Source: Minisyncoccota bacterium
GTDB taxonomy: Bacteria > Patescibacteriota > Minisyncoccia > UBA6257 > 2-01-FULL-56-20
DNA length: 64,000 nucleotides
NCBI GenBank assembly: GCA_036266715.1
Contig: DATAXS010000006.1
Span: forward strand, 1,757-65,756
Direction of reading: 5' to 3'
The position numbers were made by a program, and so were the translations under genes. The first letter of the stretch is position 1; each line of letters starts with the position of its first letter. This document shows positions 36,792 through 56,008 of the stretch, in pieces. Under the pieces are notes generated by a model, which was not told where the DNA came from, did not search any database, and was given only the letters and a program-made list of their open reading frames with translations.

Positions 36792-39425
36792 ATGATTGAC
36801 CACAAACACGGGGGTGTCGCGGGTGCTGTTTTGCGCGGTGCGGTTGTTGCGGTTTTGGTGTTCGCGGCCGGGGTGTTCGTCGCGCGGGCGGATGCCGGAG
36901 CTGGTGCTGGCGTATCGCTTGGAAATAATACCTACAGCGGGCTGGCGGGCTCCACGGTGCAGGTGTCCGGATACGGCTACATGCCGGGCGAGACGGTGAG
37001 CATTTCCCTGGGGAGCGTTTCTGCCGCGGCTGTTGCGACGACAACCGCCAATCCGGATTCAACCTTCGGGCCGGTCGCGGTCATGATTCCCGCGAATGCC
37101 ACGCAGGGGCCACTCGCGGTCATCGCAACCGGTGCATCGAGCACGATAAGCGCAAGTAACACGTTCTATGTCCAGGCGCTTGCACCTGCTATCACAGCAA
37201 CAAGCACTTCGAATACACCGGGAAGCGTGATTATGATAAGCGGTTCGGGGTTTGCGGCGAACGAGACCGTGCAGATCTCAATGGCGAGTTCGTCCGCCAC
37301 GACGACCGCCGATGCGTCGGGCGCATTCTCCGCGTTTTCGTTCGCTATTCCCTATGTGACCGCGGGCACGCAGCTGATCACTGCCACGGGCCTTTCTTCC
37401 GGCGCGAGCGCGATTGATTATTTCTATGTGGGTGGATTCTATCCGTCCGTCACGCCCTTAAACTATTTTGCGAACTTGGGCAGCGCGGTCACCTTTGACG
37501 GCACGGGTTTTGCGCCGGGCGAGCCGGTCAGCGTCTTTGAGGATGCGAACCAAAGTTCCAGTTTGCAGTTTAATGCGGATCCTTCCGGAAACTTTTTGAA
37601 CGAAGGTCCGGCCACCATCCCGTTCACGTTGACGGCCACATCAACCACGTTCAATTTTATCGGCGCCTCAAGCACTGCAACCACGTCCGTCACCATTGGG
37701 GTGGGCGCGCTCAACCCTTCCGTCGCACCATTCGCTTCCGAGTATTACGTGCTGCCGGGTGAGGTGATCTCGTTCTCCGGCAGCGGCTTTGCGGCGGGGG
37801 AGACGGTCTACGTATTTTCTTCCGCAACGACGACAGCGACCTCCTCCGCGCTTACGAGCTTTGCCGTGGATGCTTCCGGCACGTTCTCAAACGCCGGCGC
37901 GATCACTATTCCCGCGAGCCTTGCGGGCACGTCTCCCACGTTCACGTTCCGCGGAGGCACGAGCGGCGCAGTTGCGCCCGTTGGCCTTACGATCGGGGCC
38001 TATTATCCGGTCATCACGCCTTCCGCGTCTTTCCTCCAACGGGGGAACTCGTTTACCGTGGGCGCGACCGGGTTTGCACCGAATGAATCGATCAGCGTGA
38101 ATGCGTATGGCAATGCCGTCGTGAATGTGACCGCGGATGCGTCCGGCACCGCGAGCGCGGGACCGTTTGACGTGCCGCTTTCCGCCTCAAGCACGATGCT
38201 CGTGACGGCCACTGGTGCCACGAGTGGCGCCTCCTCATCAGCGTCGCTCACGATCGGCGACGTGGTGCCGCAGCAATTTTCTTCAAGTACGCTCGATGTG
38301 GCGTTGAACGTGGATAATACGGCGGGCGGCACGGCATTGCCCGCGGACTTCGCGGTAACAGTTTCCGGCGCGGACCCGAGTCCTGCATCGTTTTCGGGAA
38401 GTGCTTCCGCGATTCCGGTCACGGTGGACGGTGACACGGGCTTTGCCGTGACGGCCGCGGCATCGGACGCAACATCTTCCTTGGAATATTACGTACTTTC
38501 TTCTGCCGGCAATTGCGCGGGCGAGATCGCAAGCGCGCTCACGGACGCCTGCACGTTTACGGAAACATTTGCGATCGCTCCGCCTTCAATCACTATCGCG
38601 CCTTCCAGTTTCTCTGACGGCACGAACGGCACCGCATATTCCGCAACGCTCACTGCGTCAACCACGGTCGCGGGACCGTTCACCTGGACGGTTGCTTCCG
38701 GCACCTTGCCCACGGGTATTTCGCTCGGCACCTCAACCGCATCCACTACTTCCATTTCCGGGACGCCGACCGTGACCGGTTCATCCGACTTCACGATCAT
38801 GGTGACGAGCGGCTCTTCCACCGCCACGCAAGCGTACACGCTGAATATTGATGCCGCGCCGAGCGCGAATAGTGGCGGTGGCGGGGGAGGCGGAGGCGGG
38901 GTTGTTGTGACCAGCGGCGGTGGTGGTGGTGGCGGCGGAGGAGGCGGCGGTGATTTCTCTTACTACCCGATCATTTCTACGCCTGCAGCAACGACGACGG
39001 CAACTGTCGGCACGGGAGGAGTGGTTCTCGGCGCAAGCACTACGGAGGCCGAGTTCCTGGGTGGTGAATTGCTCGCGCTTGAACAAAATCTCGTCACTAT
39101 GCAATTCAAAGTCGCATCCTGTCCCGCTACTTTTACGACCAACCTTAGCGAAGGAATGTCGGGCGTCGCCGTGAAGGAACTTCAGGAAACATTGAACGAC
39201 AGCACGCTCACGCAGGTCGCGGCCACGGGGCCCGGCTCGCCGGGCAACGAATCGACCTATTTCGGCCCGGCAACGCGCAAAGCCGTGACCCTGTTCCAGA
39301 ATGTTTTTGCGGCGCAGATCCTCACGCCGAACGGCCTGACTGCCGGGAATGGTTTTGTGGGTGCTTCCACCCGCGCGCAATTGAACGCACTCTGCAACAG
39401 CGGCCAATCGGTGGCGCTCCAGTAA
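36792..39425 (+). CDS. large secreted surface protein (877 aa): Ig-like repeats, poly-Gly tracts, putative Ig domain, C-terminal PG-binding domain
   Basis: Signal peptide. Repeated (I/V)SGSGFA...E(T/P)V segments. GPFTWTVASGTLPTGISLG. G9-G12 tracts. C-terminal ...GVAVKELQETLN...TYFGPATRKAVTLFQ. Confidence 0.6.
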   Translation: MIDHKHGGVAGAVLRGAVVAVLVFAAGVFVARADAGAGAGVSLGNNTYSGLAGSTVQVSGYGYMPGETVSISLGSVSAAAVATTTANPDSTFGPVAVMIPANATQGPLAVIATGASSTISASNTFYVQALAPAITATSTSNTPGSVIMISGSGFAANETVQISMASSSATTTADASGAFSAFSFAIPYVTAGTQLITATGLSSGASAIDYFYVGGFYPSVTPLNYFANLGSAVTFDGTGFAPGEPVSVFEDANQSSSLQFNADPSGNFLNEGPATIPFTLTATSTTFNFIGASSTATTSVTIGVGALNPSVAPFASEYYVLPGEVISFSGSGFAAGETVYVFSSATTTATSSALTSFAVDASGTFSNAGAITIPASLAGTSPTFTFRGGTSGAVAPVGLTIGAYYPVITPSASFLQRGNSFTVGATGFAPNESISVNAYGNAVVNVTADASGTASAGPFDVPLSASSTMLVTATGATSGASSSASLTIGDVVPQQFSSSTLDVALNVDNTAGGTALPADFAVTVSGADPSPASFSGSASAIPVTVDGDTGFAVTAAASDATSSLEYYVLSSAGNCAGEIASALTDACTFTETFAIAPPSITIAPSSFSDGTNGTAYSATLTASTTVAGPFTWTVASGTLPTGISLGTSTASTTSISGTPTVTGSSDFTIMVTSGSSTATQAYTLNIDAAPSANSGGGGGGGGGVVVTSGGGGGGGGGGGGDFSYYPIISTPAATTTATVGTGGVVLGASTTEAEFLGGELLALEQNLVTMQFKVASCPATFTTNLSEGMSGVAVKELQETLNDSTLTQVAATGPGSPGNESTYFGPATRKAVTLFQNVFAAQILTPNGLTAGNGFVGASTRAQLNALCNSGQSVALQ

Positions 39426-39441
39426 AAATTGAGATAGAAAA

Positions 39442-39482
39442 AGCGGGAACCTCGGAGAGGTTCCCGCTGTGAACTTCTTAAT
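39442..39482 (+). terminator. rho-independent terminator after surface-protein gene
   Basis: gcgggaacctc-gga-gaggttcccgc forms an 11-bp stem, followed by a U-rich tail. Confidence 0.5.
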
Positions 39483-39590
39483 TGGTATGCTTGCCGCGAT
39501 TGCCACGACTTTGCCCTCCTGTCCTGGATTTACACAGTTATGGGTTCAACCCGAAAATATGATAATAAGTTGTATGCTGTTCGTCAAATA

Positions 39591-39630
39591 TTTTGCCCCG
39601 CGGGTGGAGGACGCGAGGACCTGCTTACCG
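39591..39630 (+). repeat. copy 1 of ~30-nt motif family (TTGCYCCGGCGG(G/T)TGGAGGACG(Y)(S)AG(R)AC)
   Basis: ttttgccccgcgggtggaggacgcgaggacctgc. Aligns with the copies at 39897, 40327 and 41993. Confidence 0.45.
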
Positions 39631-39896
39631 GTCGATCAGGTATTTGCTGGCGACGCTTAATGCAAATGAAGGCAATATAATAAAAACGGTCGCGAAGAGG
39701 AGTTTCATAAGCGTAGTATGTAAATCTGAACTGTTTGCATCCCCTCCGTCAGGCAGTGTCAAAATGAATAAAATTCCTATAATGCCAAAAACGATTGAAG
39801 CATAGACAAATATGCGTGTAGCAATTTTTTGCATAGCTGTAGTATATCAATTATAAAGCCAACCGGCAATTATGGGTTTGAGTCTCATTCTCGTTC

Positions 39897-39928
39897 GTTG
39901 CTCCGGCGGGTGGGGGGGGAGTGAGAAG
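39897..39928 (+). repeat. copy 2 of motif family, containing a G8 homopolymer tract next to an ATG
   Basis: gttgctccggcgggtggggggggagtgagaag then ATG. Confidence 0.4.
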
Positions 39929-39988
39929 ATGGCTAAGATAAAGAAGCGGCCCGCAAGGTTTGAACCTTGGACGGGCCGTGGACCGAAT

Positions 39989-40255
39989 TTATGTTTTCTC
40001 CCGGAAAAGGACCTTCGTCAAAGCATCCAGGAGCCGTGCGGAGATCCCGAACCTGCCGTGGATCTTTGCGCCGTTGGCAGATTTCGCCACACGCGCCATC
40101 TTTTCTTCGGAGAGCCCTTCGTGGAGAAGAGCTTTCCGAACGTCCTCATCGGGGAATGGATGTGCGTAATGCGCATGCGGATGACGTTTGCCGTACTGTC
40201 GGAGGATCTCAACGATGTTCAAAAAGTGATGAGAAGTAACTCCATGATGTGACAT
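39989..40255 (-). CDS. hypothetical His-rich small protein (88 aa)
   Basis: ORF overlaps an alternative 126-aa plus-strand ORF (39872..40252). The minus frame has a more protein-like composition. Uncertain. Confidence 0.3.
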   Translation of the reverse strand: MSHHGVTSHHFLNIVEILRQYGKRHPHAHYAHPFPDEDVRKALLHEGLSEEKMARVAKSANGAKIHGRFGISARLLDALTKVLFREKT

Positions 40256-40326
40256 TAATGACCTCCTGGGACATCATGCTGTAAATAAAATAAAACTTCA
40301 TTTCATTTTTGTCCAGTTTTGGAGCA

Positions 40327-40366
40327 TTTGCTCCGGCGGTTGGAGGACGTCAGAACTTATTTAACC
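40327..40366 (+). repeat. copy 3 of motif family, ~40 nt upstream of surface-protein gene
   Basis: tttgctccggcggttggaggacgtcagaacttatttaacc. Confidence 0.45.
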
Positions 40367-40403
40367 GTTTGAGAGGCTCACTTTGGTATCATTCATATAT
40401 ATC

Positions 40404-40679
40404 ATGGCCCGCTTTTCTCGCGCACTATTTTTTGGCATAATAGCGGTTTCCGTCGGCGCGATTTTTGTGCACGCTTCCGCGTATACCTTTAGCCACGATC
40501 TAAAATACGGTGACACGGAAGTCGATGTATCATATCTCCAGGATTTTCTTACGGATCAAGGATATTTCCACCATTCAATCACGGATTATTATGGGCCAAT
40601 CACGCTCGCCGCGGTGAAGACATGGCAAACGGCATTCCTTCCACGGGATATTTTGGGCCGATCAGCAGGGCATTCGTAG
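40404..40679 (+). CDS. N-terminal fragment (signal anchor plus start of PG-binding domain) of frameshifted surface protein
   Basis: MARFSRALFFGIIAVSVGAIFVHA signal/anchor. LQDFLTDQGYF...YYGPITLAAVKTWQ is the first half of a PG_binding_1 domain that continues in the next ORF in another frame. Confidence 0.4.
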   Translation: MARFSRALFFGIIAVSVGAIFVHASAYTFSHDLKYGDTEVDVSYLQDFLTDQGYFHHSITDYYGPITLAAVKTWQTAFLPRDILGRSAGHS

Positions 40680-41986
40680 CGGCAGGGAATGGTATGGTGT
40701 CTCTTCCGACAACCGATGATTCTCCGTCCTCAGCATCGGGACCAATACTAATGTTCAATGGCGTTCCTCTCGCCGATATCGGCCTTGGGCCCAAGTTTGT
40801 GGTGAATGGCGGCGGCAACGGGCCTTGCGGCGGGAGCTGCGGTGATCAATCGAATAACAGCAACAGCACGCCCCCCGCAATTTCTGTTTCGGTGATTCCT
40901 TCCGCTACGACGACGCTCTCGGGGGCCACAACCACTTTTACCGCAACGGTTGCGAATACTTCCGATCAAACCGTCACGTGGTCGGCAACGCTTGGCGTGA
41001 TCGACGCATCGTCGGGCGCCTATATAGCTCCTACTGCCTTTGCGACGACCACGGACACGGTAACCGCGCGCTCGAACGCGGACAATACGAAAACGGATAC
41101 TGCAACGGTGACGATTAATCCGGTCCCCGTGACCATTTCGATTTCGCCCACGTCGACCTCGGTCATGTCTGATGGATCAATCAGTTTTAATGCGACTGTC
41201 ACGAATGGTTCCACGAGCACGGTGAACTGGAGCGCAGCGCTCGGCACCATCAATGCGTCGGGTACATATACTGCGCCTACACTCAGTTCGTCCACATTTT
41301 CCGCGACGGACACGGTAACCGCCGTGAGCGTGGCTGATAATACAAAGGTTGCGACCGCAACTGTTTCGATCACGAACGCGTTGACCGATTGGTGGAAACT
41401 TGATGAGGGGACCGGGACGGTCGCGATCGACAGCATGAATAGTGCCCATAACGGCAACTGGCATGGCACAGAGGCTGGTACGGCCGGGTATTATGGCGCC
41501 GCGCGTCCATCTTCAACGCTCGCATTCTCCGGCATCTTCGATGGTACGAACGACTACATTGACCCAAGTCTGACGGTCGACTATACGACGACATTGTCCT
41601 TTACCTGGAGTATTTGGATGGACTTGAGCTCGAGCATCCAGCCCGACAACGTTATTCTTGGCGACCGGCTCAATCCGCTTTGGGTCAAGCTCACACCAAC
41701 TGCGTTTGAATATTACAATGGCGCACTCATCCACAATACTATTCCCACCGGCCAGTGGGCGTACATCGCCGTCGTAAAATCCGGCACGAGCTTCTACTAT
41801 TATCAAAACGGGACGCTGGAAGGCTCGGCATCATCGACTGATGTTCCGGGGGATCTCAATTTCTTTATCGGCACCGATCCTAATTCAAATGGAGATGGTT
41901 ATACATGGGGGTCTTTGAGCGATGTGAGGATCTATAGCACCGCACTTTCACAGGCACAAGTGCAGGCGATATACAATGGAAACTAA
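40622..41986 (+). CDS. surface protein body: rest of PG-binding domain, Big_2-like Ig repeats, C-terminal LamG/concanavalin-like domain. Apparent -1 frameshift relative to the upstream fragment.
   Basis: (M)ANGIPSTGYFGPISRAFV completes the PG-binding motif. VTWSATLGVIDASSGAYIAPT occurs three times (Big_2-like). C-terminal W.LDEGTGT...NGNWHG...FDGTNDYI...IYNGN matches LamG_3. Confidence 0.55.
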   Translation: MANGIPSTGYFGPISRAFVAAGNGMVSLPTTDDSPSSASGPILMFNGVPLADIGLGPKFVVNGGGNGPCGGSCGDQSNNSNSTPPAISVSVIPSATTTLSGATTTFTATVANTSDQTVTWSATLGVIDASSGAYIAPTAFATTTDTVTARSNADNTKTDTATVTINPVPVTISISPTSTSVMSDGSISFNATVTNGSTSTVNWSAALGTINASGTYTAPTLSSSTFSATDTVTAVSVADNTKVATATVSITNALTDWWKLDEGTGTVAIDSMNSAHNGNWHGTEAGTAGYYGAARPSSTLAFSGIFDGTNDYIDPSLTVDYTTTLSFTWSIWMDLSSSIQPDNVILGDRLNPLWVKLTPTAFEYYNGALIHNTIPTGQWAYIAVVKSGTSFYYYQNGTLEGSASSTDVPGDLNFFIGTDPNSNGDGYTWGSLSDVRIYSTALSQAQVQAIYNGN

Positions 41987-52633: not shown

Positions 52634-53494
52634 ATGGAATCGCTTTCTGACAAAAAATTGCGGGAGATGGAGCTCATGGCCACGCGCTTGCGCGAGGACG
52701 TGATCAAAATGGTCTCGCACGCGGGTTCGGGGCACATTGCGGGGCCCTTGGACATGGCGGAAATTTTCACCGCGTTCTATTTTCATATTCTGAACCAGGA
52801 TCCGAAGAAACCGCTGTGGCCTGGCCGTGACCGGCTCGTGTTGTCCAACGGGCACATTGTGCCCATACAGTACGCCGCACTCGCGCATGCGGGCTATTTC
52901 CCGGTGGAAGAATTGAAAACGCTCCGGCAATTGAACACGCGTCTGCAGGGCCACCCGCACCGCGGCGCGCTTCCAGGAATTGAAACCACTTCCGGGCCGC
53001 TCGGATCGGGCATTTCGCAGGCCTTGGGCATTGCGCTCGCGGCCCGCCTTGACCAGAAAAAATGGCGCACGTATTGCCTGACCTCCGATGGCGAGCACGA
53101 AGAGGGCAACACGTGGGAAGCGGTGATGTTCGCCGGCAAAAACCGTTTGAGCAATCTCACGGTCATCGTGGACCGCAACAACATTCAGATAGACGGATTT
53201 ACGGAAAAGATAATGCCGCTTGAACCATTCCGTGCAAAGTACGAATCGTTCAACTGGCACGTGCTGGAGATAGACGGTCATAATTTTGAGGAAATCATCG
53301 CGGCCGTGGCGGAGGCGCGCGCCATCCACGAGCAGCCCACGTGCATAATTGCGCACACGATTCCGGGCAGGGGCGTGGACTTTATGGAAAACGACTATCT
53401 CTGGCACAGCAAGCCATTTAAGCCCGGCGAGGCGGAAAAGGCGCTCGGCGAGCTCCGGACGCTCCGCGGCAAGATAAAATCGGAGCACCAATAA
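52634..53494 (+). CDS. transketolase, N-terminal (TPP-binding) subunit of a split transketolase
   Basis: GSGHIAGPLDMAEIF, SNGHIVPIQYAA and TSDGEHEEGNTWEA are Tkt PP-domain motifs. Confidence 0.85.
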   Translation: MESLSDKKLREMELMATRLREDVIKMVSHAGSGHIAGPLDMAEIFTAFYFHILNQDPKKPLWPGRDRLVLSNGHIVPIQYAALAHAGYFPVEELKTLRQLNTRLQGHPHRGALPGIETTSGPLGSGISQALGIALAARLDQKKWRTYCLTSDGEHEEGNTWEAVMFAGKNRLSNLTVIVDRNNIQIDGFTEKIMPLEPFRAKYESFNWHVLEIDGHNFEEIIAAVAEARAIHEQPTCIIAHTIPGRGVDFMENDYLWHSKPFKPGEAEKALGELRTLRGKIKSEHQ

Positions 53495-53508: not shown

Positions 53509-54039
53509 ATGAAAACTGTAAATATTATCCTTGCGATCGGCACTCTCATCATCCTCGGCGCGCTCATCAGCCTGGGTATTTCCGCGTTCTATCCCGCGCC
53601 GCAGTATTCCACCATGCCGAACTATCCAATGGCGCCGGCCATTGTGCCTTGCGCCTCGGGCAACGCTCAATGCATACAAAATGACGCGAGCTCTTCGGCC
53701 GCATACCAAGCGCAAATGGACCAATATAACGCCGCGCAGGACGCTTATACCAATGCAATGAATACCTACAATACGAACGTGTTCATCATCGCGAACATCG
53801 TGGGCATTATCGTGTTCGTGATCGGCTTCTTCCTCGTGCTCTACGCGCGGCTCGCGGGGCAAGGCGTGCCAATCGGTATCATGATGGCGGGGCTGTGGAG
53901 CATCATCTACGGCTACGCGCGCGGGTGGGGGAGCGTGAACGATCCCTTGAAGTTTGTGATCGGACTCGTGGTTGCCGTGATCGTGCTTGGCGGGAGCGTG
54001 TGGCTGATGCAGAGAAAGGCGAGGAGTGCACATGGATAG
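53509..54039 (+). CDS. membrane protein (4 TM), hypothetical
   Basis: Lies between the two transketolase genes. Host-like GC. Confidence 0.45.
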   Translation: MKTVNIILAIGTLIILGALISLGISAFYPAPQYSTMPNYPMAPAIVPCASGNAQCIQNDASSSAAYQAQMDQYNAAQDAYTNAMNTYNTNVFIIANIVGIIVFVIGFFLVLYARLAGQGVPIGIMMAGLWSIIYGYARGWGSVNDPLKFVIGLVVAVIVLGGSVWLMQRKARSAHG

Positions 54040-54076
54040 AATTTTATATTTTCCCTCACTGGAATAAAGAAATGGC

Positions 54077-54110
54077 GCGATTGACTGAAATCAATTGCGC
54101 CATCGAAAGT
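54077..54110. terminator. bidirectional hairpin terminator between convergent genes
   Basis: atggcgcgattga-ctgaaa-tcaattgcgccat forms a 13-bp stem with one mismatch. U-rich on both sides. Confidence 0.45.
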
Positions 54111-54118
54111 TGTTTGGT

Positions 54119-54310
54119 TTAAGCTGTTGCGTGCTTCGATTTTTTATGTTGGATTTTAGTTTTGCGCACGCTTACTTTTGGAGGTTGTCGTGTATCGAGA
54201 TCGGGATCGATTCGCCTGAGAAGGTTTAAAATTTCCTCAGGACTGGCATTTTTGAGTCGTTCATCGCTCCGATGGAGAGCCTCTCTAATTTCTTTTCCCC
54301 TGATAGGCAT
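54119..54310 (-). CDS. small basic protein (63 aa) translationally coupled to the upstream ART gene. Candidate antitoxin, immunity or regulator.
   Basis: TAATG stop/start overlap with the ART gene. Helical N-terminal region and Lys-rich C-terminus. Lies in the low-GC block. Confidence 0.4.
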   Translation of the reverse strand: MPIRGKEIREALHRSDERLKNASPEEILNLLRRIDPDLDTRQPPKVSVRKTKIQHKKSKHATA

Positions 54311-54894
54311 TACTGTTTCCCTCCTTCAAAATGGTAAAGCTGAATGCTTTTTATTACTTCCGTGCGATAAGGACGCACGACTATCTGAACATGGGCATGG
54401 CTATAAAGCTGTGAACCGGGAACGATTGGCTTGCCTTCGATGAAGGTAGCTCGGACGGCGCTGACTCGTCTCCCTTCTGCTTCCAGTTGATCCACCACGG
54501 AGTTAATCAGCACACAATCAAAGTCGTGTTTTCCACCTTTGTTTAATGGTAACGACTTCCCAGCTTTTTGGTATCGTTCTTCTAGCACCACATATCGCCG
54601 CGCAATTATTTCTGCCGCCTCGATGTCAATAAGGTCAAGACAATCGTTGAGGTCTATCTCAGCGCAGAGTACTACGGGGTTTTCGGTACGCACAGGAGGC
54701 GAAATGCGAACTTTCGGCCACTCTCGGGCGCGAAAAGGTGCGTCTTGAAAGAAATACACGCCCCTTCCCAGCCAGTCAGTGTCTTTTTCGCTGAATAGAA
54801 ATCTTTCGGCGTTTTTCTCGCCGGGCTCCAGGATTGCTGTTGCCGATTCCTCGCTTGTACCATGATAGCCTAAAACCGTTAGGGTTTGATCCAT
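54310..54894 (-). CDS. stand-alone PARP-like (H-Y-E class) ADP-ribosyltransferase domain protein (194 aa), candidate toxin
   Basis: LGYHGTSEESATAILEPG parallels PARP LWHGSRttNfagILsqGL. GRGVYFFQDA parallels PARP GKGIYFAD. An acidic residue is present downstream (CAEIDL). Local GC is about 42%. Confidence 0.5.
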   Translation of the reverse strand: MDQTLTVLGYHGTSEESATAILEPGEKNAERFLFSEKDTDWLGRGVYFFQDAPFRAREWPKVRISPPVRTENPVVLCAEIDLNDCLDLIDIEAAEIIARRYVVLEERYQKAGKSLPLNKGGKHDFDCVLINSVVDQLEAEGRRVSAVRATFIEGKPIVPGSQLYSHAHVQIVVRPYRTEVIKSIQLYHFEGGKQ

Positions 54895-55018
54895 TGGATG
54901 GCCCTCCCTGATTGTTTAAATTTTCAAGTTCTGTTAAAATTATACAATAATTTTTGGTTAAATCAAGTAGAAGAGAATCAAAGCCCGTTTCTTGAAAGCG
55001 GTATTGTACAATATATAG

Positions 55019-56008
55019 ATGCTAAACCCCGACGCGAAACTGAATCCAAAGCTGTTTGACGAGGACGTTGAACAGCGCCCCACGCGGGACGGCTACGGCA
55101 ACGGGCTCGTGGCGGCGGGGGAGATGAACGACAACGTGGTCGCGCTCTGCGCGGACCTCACGGAATCCACGCGCACGGAGGCGTTCGCCAAGAAATTTCC
55201 GGAACGCTACTTTGAGCTCGGCGTGGCCGAGCAGAATATGGCGACGGTCGCAGCTGGCCTCGGCGTCACGGGCAAAATTCCTTTCATCGCTTCTTATGCC
55301 ACGTTTTCCCCGGGCAGAAACTGGGAGCAGATTCGGACCACGATCGCCTACAACGATTCCAACGTAAAAGTGGCTGGGCACCACGCGGGCATTTCCGTGG
55401 GACCGGACGGCGCCACGCACCAGGCAACGGAGGATATTGCGATCATGCGCGCGATGCCGAATATGAAAGTGTTCGTGCCGTGTGACGCAGTGGAAGGCGC
55501 AAAGGCCACGCTCGCCGCGGCGCACATCTGGGGCCCGGTGTACCTCCGGTTCCAACGGGAAAAAACGCCCATCATTACCACCGACCTCACGCCCTACACG
55601 CCGGGCAAAGCGGAAGTGTTCTGGCAGTCAAAAAAGTCGGAAGTGCTCATTATTGGCTGCGGAGGATTGATGTATAACGCGCTCGTGGCCGCGCGGGAAC
55701 TGGAAAAAGAAAAGATAGGCACGATCGTTTTGAACGTCCACACCATAAAACCTCTCGACGAAAAGAAAATCGTTGAATTGGCAAAGAAAACAGGCGCGGT
55801 AGTGACCGTGGAAGAGCATCAGGTGGAGGGCGGTCTTGGCGGTGCCGTTGCGGAAGCGCTCGCAAAGCACGCGCCCACGCCAGTTGAATTCATCGGTATG
55901 CAGAACACCTTCGGTGAATCCGGGCCGCCAGACGCGCTCATCAAAAAGTACGGCATGACGGCGGAAGACATTGTGGTGGCGGCGAAGAAAGCCATCAGGC
56001 GCAAATAG
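55019..56008 (+). CDS. transketolase, C-terminal (Pyr and C-terminal domain) subunit
   Basis: FELGVAEQNMATVAAGL...FIASYATFS...GPDGATHQATEDIAIMRAMPNM. Confidence 0.85.
   Translation: MLNPDAKLNPKLFDEDVEQRPTRDGYGNGLVAAGEMNDNVVALCADLTESTRTEAFAKKFPERYFELGVAEQNMATVAAGLGVTGKIPFIASYATFSPGRNWEQIRTTIAYNDSNVKVAGHHAGISVGPDGATHQATEDIAIMRAMPNMKVFVPCDAVEGAKATLAAAHIWGPVYLRFQREKTPIITTDLTPYTPGKAEVFWQSKKSEVLIIGCGGLMYNALVAARELEKEKIGTIVLNVHTIKPLDEKKIVELAKKTGAVVTVEEHQVEGGLGGAVAEALAKHAPTPVEFIGMQNTFGESGPPDALIKKYGMTAEDIVVAAKKAIRRK

Follow-up and report, generated by a model that had tools for sequence, protein, structure and literature searches.

What has been inserted between the two transketolase half-genes of this Minisyncoccota bacterium, and what would its products do? 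The stretch in question is a block of low guanine-plus-cytosine (GC) content at positions 54040-55018 of a 64,000-nucleotide window of contig DATAXS010000006.1 (the window being the whole stretch of DNA analysed). The block carries, on the minus strand, a gene for a 194-residue ADP-ribosyltransferase (ART) followed by a gene for a 63-residue protein. Our analysis indicates that this gene pair, referred to below as the cassette, is probably a two-gene, chaperone-less, CmdT-like type II toxin–antitoxin or abortive-infection module. The homology of the ART to CmdT, the toxin of an anti-phage system, is well supported; we infer the toxicity of the ART, its neutralisation by the 63-residue protein, its target, and its trigger, the first two from homology and gene arrangement. 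An original prediction, made from the sequence alone, had proposed a toxin or defence module but could not match it to a named system. The toxin does have a named homologue, CmdT (PD-T4-9_A), though the chaperone component of that system is missing here.

The 194-residue protein and its homology to CmdT

The 194-residue protein has the same sequence as a hypothetical protein from a Candidatus Paceibacterota metagenome-assembled genome (MAG), and it has 14 close homologues, including one 70%-identical paralogue in the same MAG. Library searches with the single sequence were nearly empty (Pfam, only PARP at E=0.2; NCBIfam, no match; phmmer against the Protein Data Bank (PDB), no match), and family-level searches were therefore needed. 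The motifs quoted in the original prediction, YHGT and GRGVYFFQDA, are present in the sequence and invariant among homologues. Specifically, the motif residues are H11 (in YHGTS), Y47 (in GRGVYFFQDA), E153, and Q170 (in HVQIVVR). The close homologues share, without exception, YHGTS (H11), WLGxGxYFFQDAP (Y47), E153-G154, H168, and Q170; across 107 diverse homologues, conservation is complete or at least 90% at H11, G12, G43, G45, Y47, F48, E153, H168, and Q170 (G43, G45, and Y47 invariant; H11 at least 90%).

The AlphaFold2 (AF2) model of the protein (pLDDT 80) has an ART fold: its top Foldseek match in the PDB is the diphtheria toxin catalytic domain, and PARP2 and NatT are also among the best matches. 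A family profile compared with the PDB aligned the YHGT…GxGxYF segment with the catalytic domain of exotoxin A (H440…Y470). Among the 107 diverse family members, 48 match Pfam PARP (best E=1.6e-8) and nine match the exotoxin A catalytic domain. A search of viral folds (BFVD) gave weak ART-PolyVal-type matches only (TM-score ~0.4), which contribute nothing to the assignment. The model phrog_14664 matches the protein with E=8e-20. By predicted fold and by motifs, the protein is an ART of the H-Y-[E/D/Q] (diphtheria toxin/PARP) class, in agreement with the earlier assignment to the H-Y-E type, and we infer that it performs NAD+-dependent ADP-ribosyl transfer. The third catalytic position is probably Q170, which in the model lies on the second strand of a 146-156/164-173 hairpin and fits an HY-[E,D,Q] triad; E153 is near Q170 and equally conserved (both at least 90%), and the assignment is made from model position only, because no alignment to a characterised ART covers this region.

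Several better-known ART systems were compared with the cassette. The ART shares its fold and the NAD-binding motifs (Y)HG(T/S) and GxGxYF with diphtheria toxin, exotoxin A, and PARP, but it lacks their translocation, receptor-binding, and regulatory domains and apparently has Gln where they have Glu as the third catalytic residue. DarTG combines a DNA ADP-ribosyltransferase toxin with a macrodomain or NADAR antitoxin; the cassette resembles it in having a stand-alone diphtheria-toxin-class ART toxin, presumed to act on nucleic acid, within what would be a two-gene toxin–antitoxin or abortive-infection module. Membership in the DarT family (DUF4433) was rejected, DarT matching 0 of the 107 family members. 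Membership among the RES-domain toxins (MbcT/ParT) was rejected as well, with Pfam RES matching 0 of 107, a His in motif I, and a resemblance that is structural only. Unlike RES–Xre systems (MbcTA, ParST, NatRT, Res-Xre), the cassette has His-Gly-Thr in motif I, where RES has Arg, and has a partner without an Xre/helix-turn-helix (HTH) or COG5642 domain. Tpt1 was also rejected, its matches being insignificant.

The comparison with CmdT is closer. CmdTAC (PD-T4-9) of Escherichia coli ECOR22 was reportedly characterised by Vassallo et al. (2022, 2024) and Mets et al. (2024). The PADLOC model PD-T4-9_A matches the 194-residue ART with E=3e-5 and matches 100 of the 107 family members. As a genuine CmdT comparator we used the three-gene toxin-antitoxin-chaperone (TAC) operon of a Streptococcus satellite phage, the third gene of which matches PD-T4-9_C (SecB-like) with E=3e-13; the first gene of this operon matches PD-T4-9_A no better than the cassette ART family does. 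The family profile aligned with the Streptococcus CmdT at 98.6% probability (hhalign, E=1.2e-15), over residues 8-135 of the 194-residue ART.

PD-T4-9 is CmdTAC, a toxin-antitoxin-chaperone anti-phage system (PMC9519451, PMC11618068). The ART CmdT blocks translation by modifying mRNA at adenine N6 within GA dinucleotides, and CmdT homologues have an HY-[E,D,Q] triad in which Q is an accepted third residue (PMC11618068). In E. coli, CmdT is insoluble when alone; with CmdA, which also helps it to fold, it is toxic except where CmdC is present too (PMC11618068). Like CmdTAC, the cassette has a homologous stand-alone ART of ~190 residues and HY-[E/D/Q] class, has the gene order toxin, then small partner, and belongs to a family found on mobile elements, phages, and plasmids. 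Like CmdA, its partner is predicted to have two N-terminal helices and an unstructured C-terminal part. Unlike CmdA (121 residues, with a long chaperone-addiction segment), the partner has 63 residues and a short basic tail and does not match PD-T4-9_B in sequence; unlike CmdT, the toxin has a C-terminal half that is unaligned to CmdT; and unlike the E. coli system, the cassette resides in a bacterium of the Candidate Phyla Radiation (CPR).

The principal difference is the absence of a SecB-like CmdC gene, both in the window and beside any cassette of the CPR clade. In particular, ORFs (open reading frames) flanking the related CPR-clade cassettes gave no match to PD-T4-9_C or SecB, with the Streptococcus control positive, and the neighbours of these cassettes are unrelated housekeeping genes or small ORFs of no recognised family. 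The cassette has no third gene on its own strand: downstream of the small gene come a terminator-like hairpin and then the native membrane-protein gene, which is convergent. Because a defining component, the SecB-like chaperone, is absent, we do not file the cassette as CmdTAC.

The transcription unit and its insertion between the transketolase genes

The features of the locus are as follows.

52634..53494, plus strand: tktN, N-terminal transketolase half (Pfam)
53509..54039, plus strand: membrane-protein gene, 176 residues (ORF list)
54040..55018: inserted low-GC block (transcription unit and AT-rich spacers), between the membrane-protein gene and tktC
54063..54103, minus strand: terminator-like hairpin ATGGCGCAATTGA-TTTCAG-TCAATCGCGCCAT, then TTCTTTATT, 3′ of the small gene
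54119..54310, minus strand: small partner gene, 63 residues, putative antitoxin (ORF list)
54310..54894, minus strand: ART gene, 194 residues, CmdT-like ADP-ribosyltransferase, putative toxin
54319..54327, minus strand: Shine-Dalgarno sequence of the small gene, GAAGGAGGG, inside the final ART codons (…FEGG…), from sequence
54902..54908, minus strand: Shine-Dalgarno sequence of the ART gene, GGGAGGG, 7 nt 5′ of the ATG at 54894, from sequence
54939..54966, minus strand: promoter-like site, sigma-70-like (−35 TTGATT, 16-nt spacer, −10 TATAAT)
55019..56008, plus strand: tktC, C-terminal transketolase half (Pfam)

The two minus-strand ORFs, of 194 and 63 residues, have exactly the coordinates first given for them, and the TAATG junction read there is present: the ART stop codon TAA (54312-54310) and the small-gene ATG (54310-54308) share one base (54310). 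The cassette is, as predicted from its signals, a complete transcription unit comprising a promoter, the ART gene, the coupled small gene, and a terminator. The promoter-like site scores 10/12 in a consensus scan; its −10 element and surroundings align with the region upstream of the paralogous cassette in the same MAG, while sequence further upstream does not. The terminator-like hairpin (54103..54072) is an inverted repeat with 13-nt arms (92% complementary) and a 6-nt loop, followed by a T-rich run. A simple terminator scan did not call it, the T-rich run containing fewer than 5 T in 8, and T-rich runs also lie downstream of the small gene in homologous cassettes. In the Shine-Dalgarno sequence of the small gene, the stretch GAAGGAG is conserved as DNA in 5/5 aligned cassettes, which, given its place within the last ART codons, fits translational coupling of the two genes. 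The conserved C-terminal …FEGG of the ART homologues is encoded by GAAGGAGG, which also serves as this Shine-Dalgarno sequence, and its conservation at the protein level may derive partly from the ribosome-binding site.

The small partner proposed in the original prediction proves to be conserved. A homologous small ORF lies directly downstream of the ART gene in all eight related loci examined (the paralogue L001; L003, L005, L007, L174, L175, and L177; and a Saccharibacteria genome, L012), and in most of these there is a 1- or 4-nt overlap between the ART stop and the start of the small ORF. The small proteins share M-x-I…(A/T)(S/T)xEE(I/L)xxxLxxxxP, with a Pro-rich linker and then a Lys/Arg-rich tail after it; in the 63-residue protein the helices contain ASPEEI..LL.R.DP. 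Compared with L174, the closest cassette, the small gene has pN 0.114 and pS 0.741, and the ART gene has pN 0.094 and pS 0.715; both genes are thus under purifying selection (pN/pS ~0.13-0.15). The 63-residue ORF is a real, conserved gene. Its AF2 model (pLDDT 76) has helices at residues 5-21 and 24-34 and a disordered tail of ~28 residues that is basic and poor in aromatic residues (isoelectric point 10.4 for the protein, 10.7 for the tail); in architecture, as modelled, the protein is CmdA-like, an N-terminal helical hairpin with an unstructured tail. A profile search of a 5.8-billion-protein database with the protein returned only six close relatives.

Two further observations concern the small proteins. 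Those of the window cassette, L174, and L001 end in …ATA or …ANA (window 54119-54130), while other clade members end in Lys/Arg runs; the C-terminal Ala-Ala of E. coli CmdA is a ClpX degron (10.1101/2024.02.24.581848). The 61-residue small protein of L001 (P0168) carries the JGI name "uncharacterized protein YdaT", a name with no support in Pfam, NCBIfam, or PADLOC.

The base composition of the block sets it apart. Its GC content is 44.7% (ART gene 48.9%, small gene 43.8%, two intergenic pieces 31-37%), compared with 57.3% for tktN, 56.1% for the membrane-protein gene, and 58.5% for tktC; the contrast with the flanks noted in the original prediction is therefore real, but the figures given there, ~42% against ~60%, overstated it. 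Among all 979-nt stretches of the window (mean 55.2%, sd 2.8%), the block ranks lowest in GC content, with 0.03% of the stretches as low. At third codon positions, the GC fraction of the ART gene (0.467) is the lowest among 55 long ORFs (mean 0.669, sd 0.069), and that of the small gene is lower still (0.359). The second-lowest-GC region of the window, 39430-40380 (~46%, ~950 nt), lies between two genes for very large Thr/Ser/Ala-rich surface proteins (36792-39425 and 40622-41986) and contains no convincing ORF and no Rfam match.

Relatives for synteny were collected by scanning metagenome contigs with the tktC protein (n=80, 62-91% identity). Neither the ART nor the small protein is present at the tkt site in any of the 80. 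In the more distant relatives the distance from tktN to tktC is −5 to +7 nt, the two genes abutting or overlapping as is expected of halves described as normally adjacent; in the closest relatives, however, the membrane-protein gene already stands between them. In L096 and L106 the site is empty: the membrane-protein gene and tktC are separated by 48 nt (L096) or 35 nt (L106), with no ART or small ORF. Accordingly, the membrane-protein gene is native, and the cassette is a recent antisense insertion of ~0.94 kb between it and tktC, so that of the two elements first named as separating the transketolase pair, only the low-GC block belongs to the recent event. The outlier composition, the empty site in the closest relatives, and the different contexts of all homologous cassettes together support the horizontal acquisition of block 54040-55018, as originally proposed.

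Other relatives have different genes in the tkt gap, mostly for membrane proteins, and the gap is therefore a variable spot. Among the Paceibacteria relatives at loci L096-L157, its contents include the membrane-protein gene only (L096, L106); the membrane-protein gene plus a gene for a membrane-anchored protein of ~220 residues (L097, L102, L107, L110, L117); a gene for a multi-pass membrane protein of ~317 residues (L116, L118, L128, L134, L135, L142); and, in L145, a 3.3-kb insert with several unrelated genes. The window's own membrane protein was considered as a part of the module and rejected on its native GC content, its position directly after tktN, and its conservation in relatives without the cassette; these outweigh a weak PADLOC match of the protein to "2TM effector" (E=0.0016). 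As for traces of the insertion event, the flanking repeats are short, AT-rich, and at chance level, no integrase was found near the cassette, and no tRNA flanks it (in an Rfam scan of the window the sole match was a tRNA ~11 kb away). The 124-nt AT-rich spacer between the cassette and tktC contains two copies of a near-palindrome, ATT(A/G)TACAATA, one (54939-54949) overlapping the cassette −10 element and the other (55003-55013) just upstream of the tktC start. The same spacer contains a plus-strand promoter-like site (54921-54948), which may now drive tktC.

Related cassettes and the wider family

The CPR-clade cassettes all lie in different neighbourhoods (between glnA and infC, beside a ribosomal-protein operon, pgi, or secDF, among others), and such changing contexts are typical of mobile toxin–antitoxin cassettes. 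The pair also shows the generic traits of type II toxin–antitoxin systems, being small, coupled, conserved together, and mobile between contexts. A second, paralogous cassette is present on another contig of the same MAG (L001:6001-6770, between glnA and infC), with an ART 70% identical to that of the window (P0005, VHZ04_01415), a small protein 44% identical overall and 57% identical over the aligned part, and a promoter region similar to that of the window copy. In one relative (P0014; L005/L006:5001-5620; GCA_037025245/185) a frameshift lies near the 3′ end of the ART gene, with the downstream small ORF intact; this cassette may consist of a decaying toxin with a retained antitoxin.

Beyond the CPR clade, the ART family is large and has no Pfam or NCBIfam model. 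An exhaustive profile search yielded 2,993 clusters at 50% identity (E ≤ 1e-3), or 1,287 at E ≤ 1e-10, with representatives that are almost all stand-alone and ~190 residues long. The members come from CPR bacteria, Cyanobacteria, Chloroflexota, Planctomycetota, Verrucomicrobiota, Proteobacteria, Firmicutes, an archaeon, plasmids, and phages. Homologues are encoded on 39 RefSeq plasmids, where they are annotated "hypothetical protein"; in all four plasmids inspected a small ORF lies upstream of the ART gene, overlapping it or ending ≤6 nt away, and in three of the four the ART homologue adjoins transfer or recombinase genes.

To describe the family context more broadly, small ORFs adjacent to the ART gene in 80 species genomes from many phyla were clustered. 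Of the 31 ORFs in cluster 1, which have the motif …FL…G(I/F)I…G.L…Y, 20 precede the ART gene and 11 follow it; the partner is upstream in many Proteobacteria, Verrucomicrobia, and plasmids (L008, L009, L010, L011) and downstream in Planctomycetes and some other lineages. The 23 ORFs of cluster 2 all follow the ART gene and have the motif M.D..KA..IL..HF..VT.EEF…L…PEL; a third cluster consists of the CPR-clade small ORFs. With partners on either side of the ART gene, gene order is not fixed in the family. The CPR partner profile aligned with clusters 1 and 2 at (S/T)PEE(F/I) (hhalign, P ~1e-4, 50-56% probability). A hidden Markov model of the CPR small proteins, run against ORFs beside 90 family loci, matched outside the clade only the Saccharibacteria copy (E=0.002).

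The cluster-2 module (~40 residues, N-terminal, helical) also occurs in larger proteins. In Dehalococcoidia, a cyanobacterium, and a Thermoplasmata archaeon it is fused in frame, downstream of the ART, to nucleoside-deoxyribosyltransferase-like and HTH domains, to a DEAD helicase with an MZB domain, or to a Uma2 nuclease. The loci with such fusion partners are:

L019, L023, L025, L026, L043: ~300-350 residues
L021, L028: ~830 residues
L022
L081

The fused domains may be sensor or modification-reversal domains.

Proposed mechanism, rival explanations, and significance

On our reading of the cassette as a two-gene toxin–antitoxin or abortive-infection module, the 63-residue protein would be made in step with the ART through translational coupling and, most likely, would bind the ART via its helical hairpin and keep it inactive. 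The disordered basic tail would probably render the partner proteolytically labile, so that, if partner synthesis stopped upon phage takeover, stress, or cassette loss, the ART would be freed. The freed ART would ADP-ribosylate nucleic acid, with RNA, by analogy with CmdT, the most likely substrate; for a two-gene module of this kind, we regard the case for an RNA target as evenly balanced. The resulting growth arrest would amount to abortive infection or addiction, with no need for a SecB-like chaperone.

Several points weigh against this reading. The CmdT match is confined mainly to the N-terminal two thirds of the ART, and its C-terminal third is covered by no alignment to a characterised ART; catalytic mechanism and substrate may therefore differ from those of CmdT. 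The 63-residue protein has no match in Pfam, PADLOC, NCBIfam, or PHROGs. It is also missed by PD-T4-9_B, a result that says little because the same model failed on the Streptococcus CmdA, and the alignment of the CPR partner profile with the other partner clusters is no more than suggestive of homology. Finally, the toxicity in E. coli of CmdT and CmdA together, when the chaperone is lacking, means that neutrality of a two-gene form is not to be taken for granted.

A target other than mRNA has precedents among ARTs and related toxins (ParT modifies Prs, exotoxin A modifies eEF2, DarT modifies DNA, and MbcT and other RES toxins degrade NAD+); that the ART is active but acts on protein or DNA or degrades NAD+, in what would still be a toxin–antitoxin pair, is an alternative we take seriously while considering it rather unlikely. 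Less probable again is that the 63-residue protein is mainly a folding or stabilising co-factor, with neutralisation by an unlinked chaperone or hydrolase or with the pair acting as a constitutive regulatory enzyme. The behaviour of CmdT in E. coli, insoluble alone and toxic with CmdA in the absence of CmdC (PMC11618068), points in that direction, as does the helix-hairpin-plus-tail architecture that the partner shares with CmdA. However, no SecB-like gene lies beside any CPR-clade cassette, and two-gene cassettes of the family persist on plasmids and in many phyla. The tail is, moreover, short, basic, and aromatic-poor, unlike chaperone-addiction segments, which depend on aromatic residues, and removal of such a segment yields a classical toxin–antitoxin pair, as shown for HigBAC (10.1101/2024.02.24.581848).

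The apparent replacement of the canonical Glu of the H-Y-E triad by Gln (Q170), together with the frameshifted ART gene of P0014, could be taken to mean that the cassette no longer has a function and is a remnant, decaying or catalytically dead (a pseudo-ART). We consider this very improbable: neither gene is disrupted, and purifying selection on both is strong (pN/pS 0.13-0.15); H11, Y47, and Q170 are at least 90% conserved among the 107 diverse homologues; the promoter, Shine-Dalgarno sequences, and terminator are intact; and Q is an accepted third residue among CmdT homologues (PMC11618068). Least credible of all is a housekeeping role as a Tpt1/KptA-type RNA 2′-phosphotransferase or other core RNA-repair enzyme. 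Besides the insignificance of the Tpt1 matches, the cassette is absent from the site in 80/80 close relatives, and its foreign composition, mobile contexts, duplication in the genome, and constant small partner all speak against a core enzyme.

The toxin–antitoxin or abortive-infection reading may extend beyond this locus. As a tentative proposal, which we hold with distinctly less confidence than the reading of the cassette itself, the cassette would be one member of a very large, unannotated superfamily of CmdT-like toxins that ADP-ribosylate nucleic acid, work independently of a chaperone, and are neutralised by a portable helical-hairpin module of ~35-40 residues. This module may lie upstream or downstream of the toxin, and may stand alone with a degradable tail or be fused to sensor or reversal domains. 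If the proposal were true, the CPR version would represent a minimal, two-gene form either ancestral to CmdTAC or derived from it, and no ART-based abortive-infection module would have been described before it in ultra-small episymbiotic bacteria.

The general logic of the cassette, an ART toxin with a small antitoxin on a mobile element, is what a specialist would expect; what appears new is a chaperone-less, two-gene module of the CmdT family, in a Patescibacterial genome with two copies. To our knowledge, CmdT, described in 2024 as the first mRNA-poisoning ADP-ribosyltransferase, has so far been seen only within a three-gene, chaperone-gated system; the same type of toxin appears to circulate in two-gene form as well. 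The systems of the CmdTAC papers have three genes, and mRNA modification and abortive-infection defence are known only for the E. coli CmdTAC systems (PMC11618068; 10.1101/2024.02.24.581848). The term "CmdT-like" was not found in the literature searched, and large toxin–antitoxin catalogues may already list such two-gene pairs.

Recognition of the family would give a name to thousands of hypothetical proteins now invisible to Pfam and NCBIfam. At 194 plus 63 residues, the module is a tractable, minimal system for asking how a helical-hairpin peptide silences a CmdT-type enzyme, and it could tell whether RNA ADP-ribosylation is a general toxin–antitoxin or defence mechanism. The retention of two paralogous copies in a tiny Patescibacterial genome suggests a real selective role, in defence or addiction. 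One of the two copies sits antisense inside the pentose-phosphate operon, between the tkt genes.

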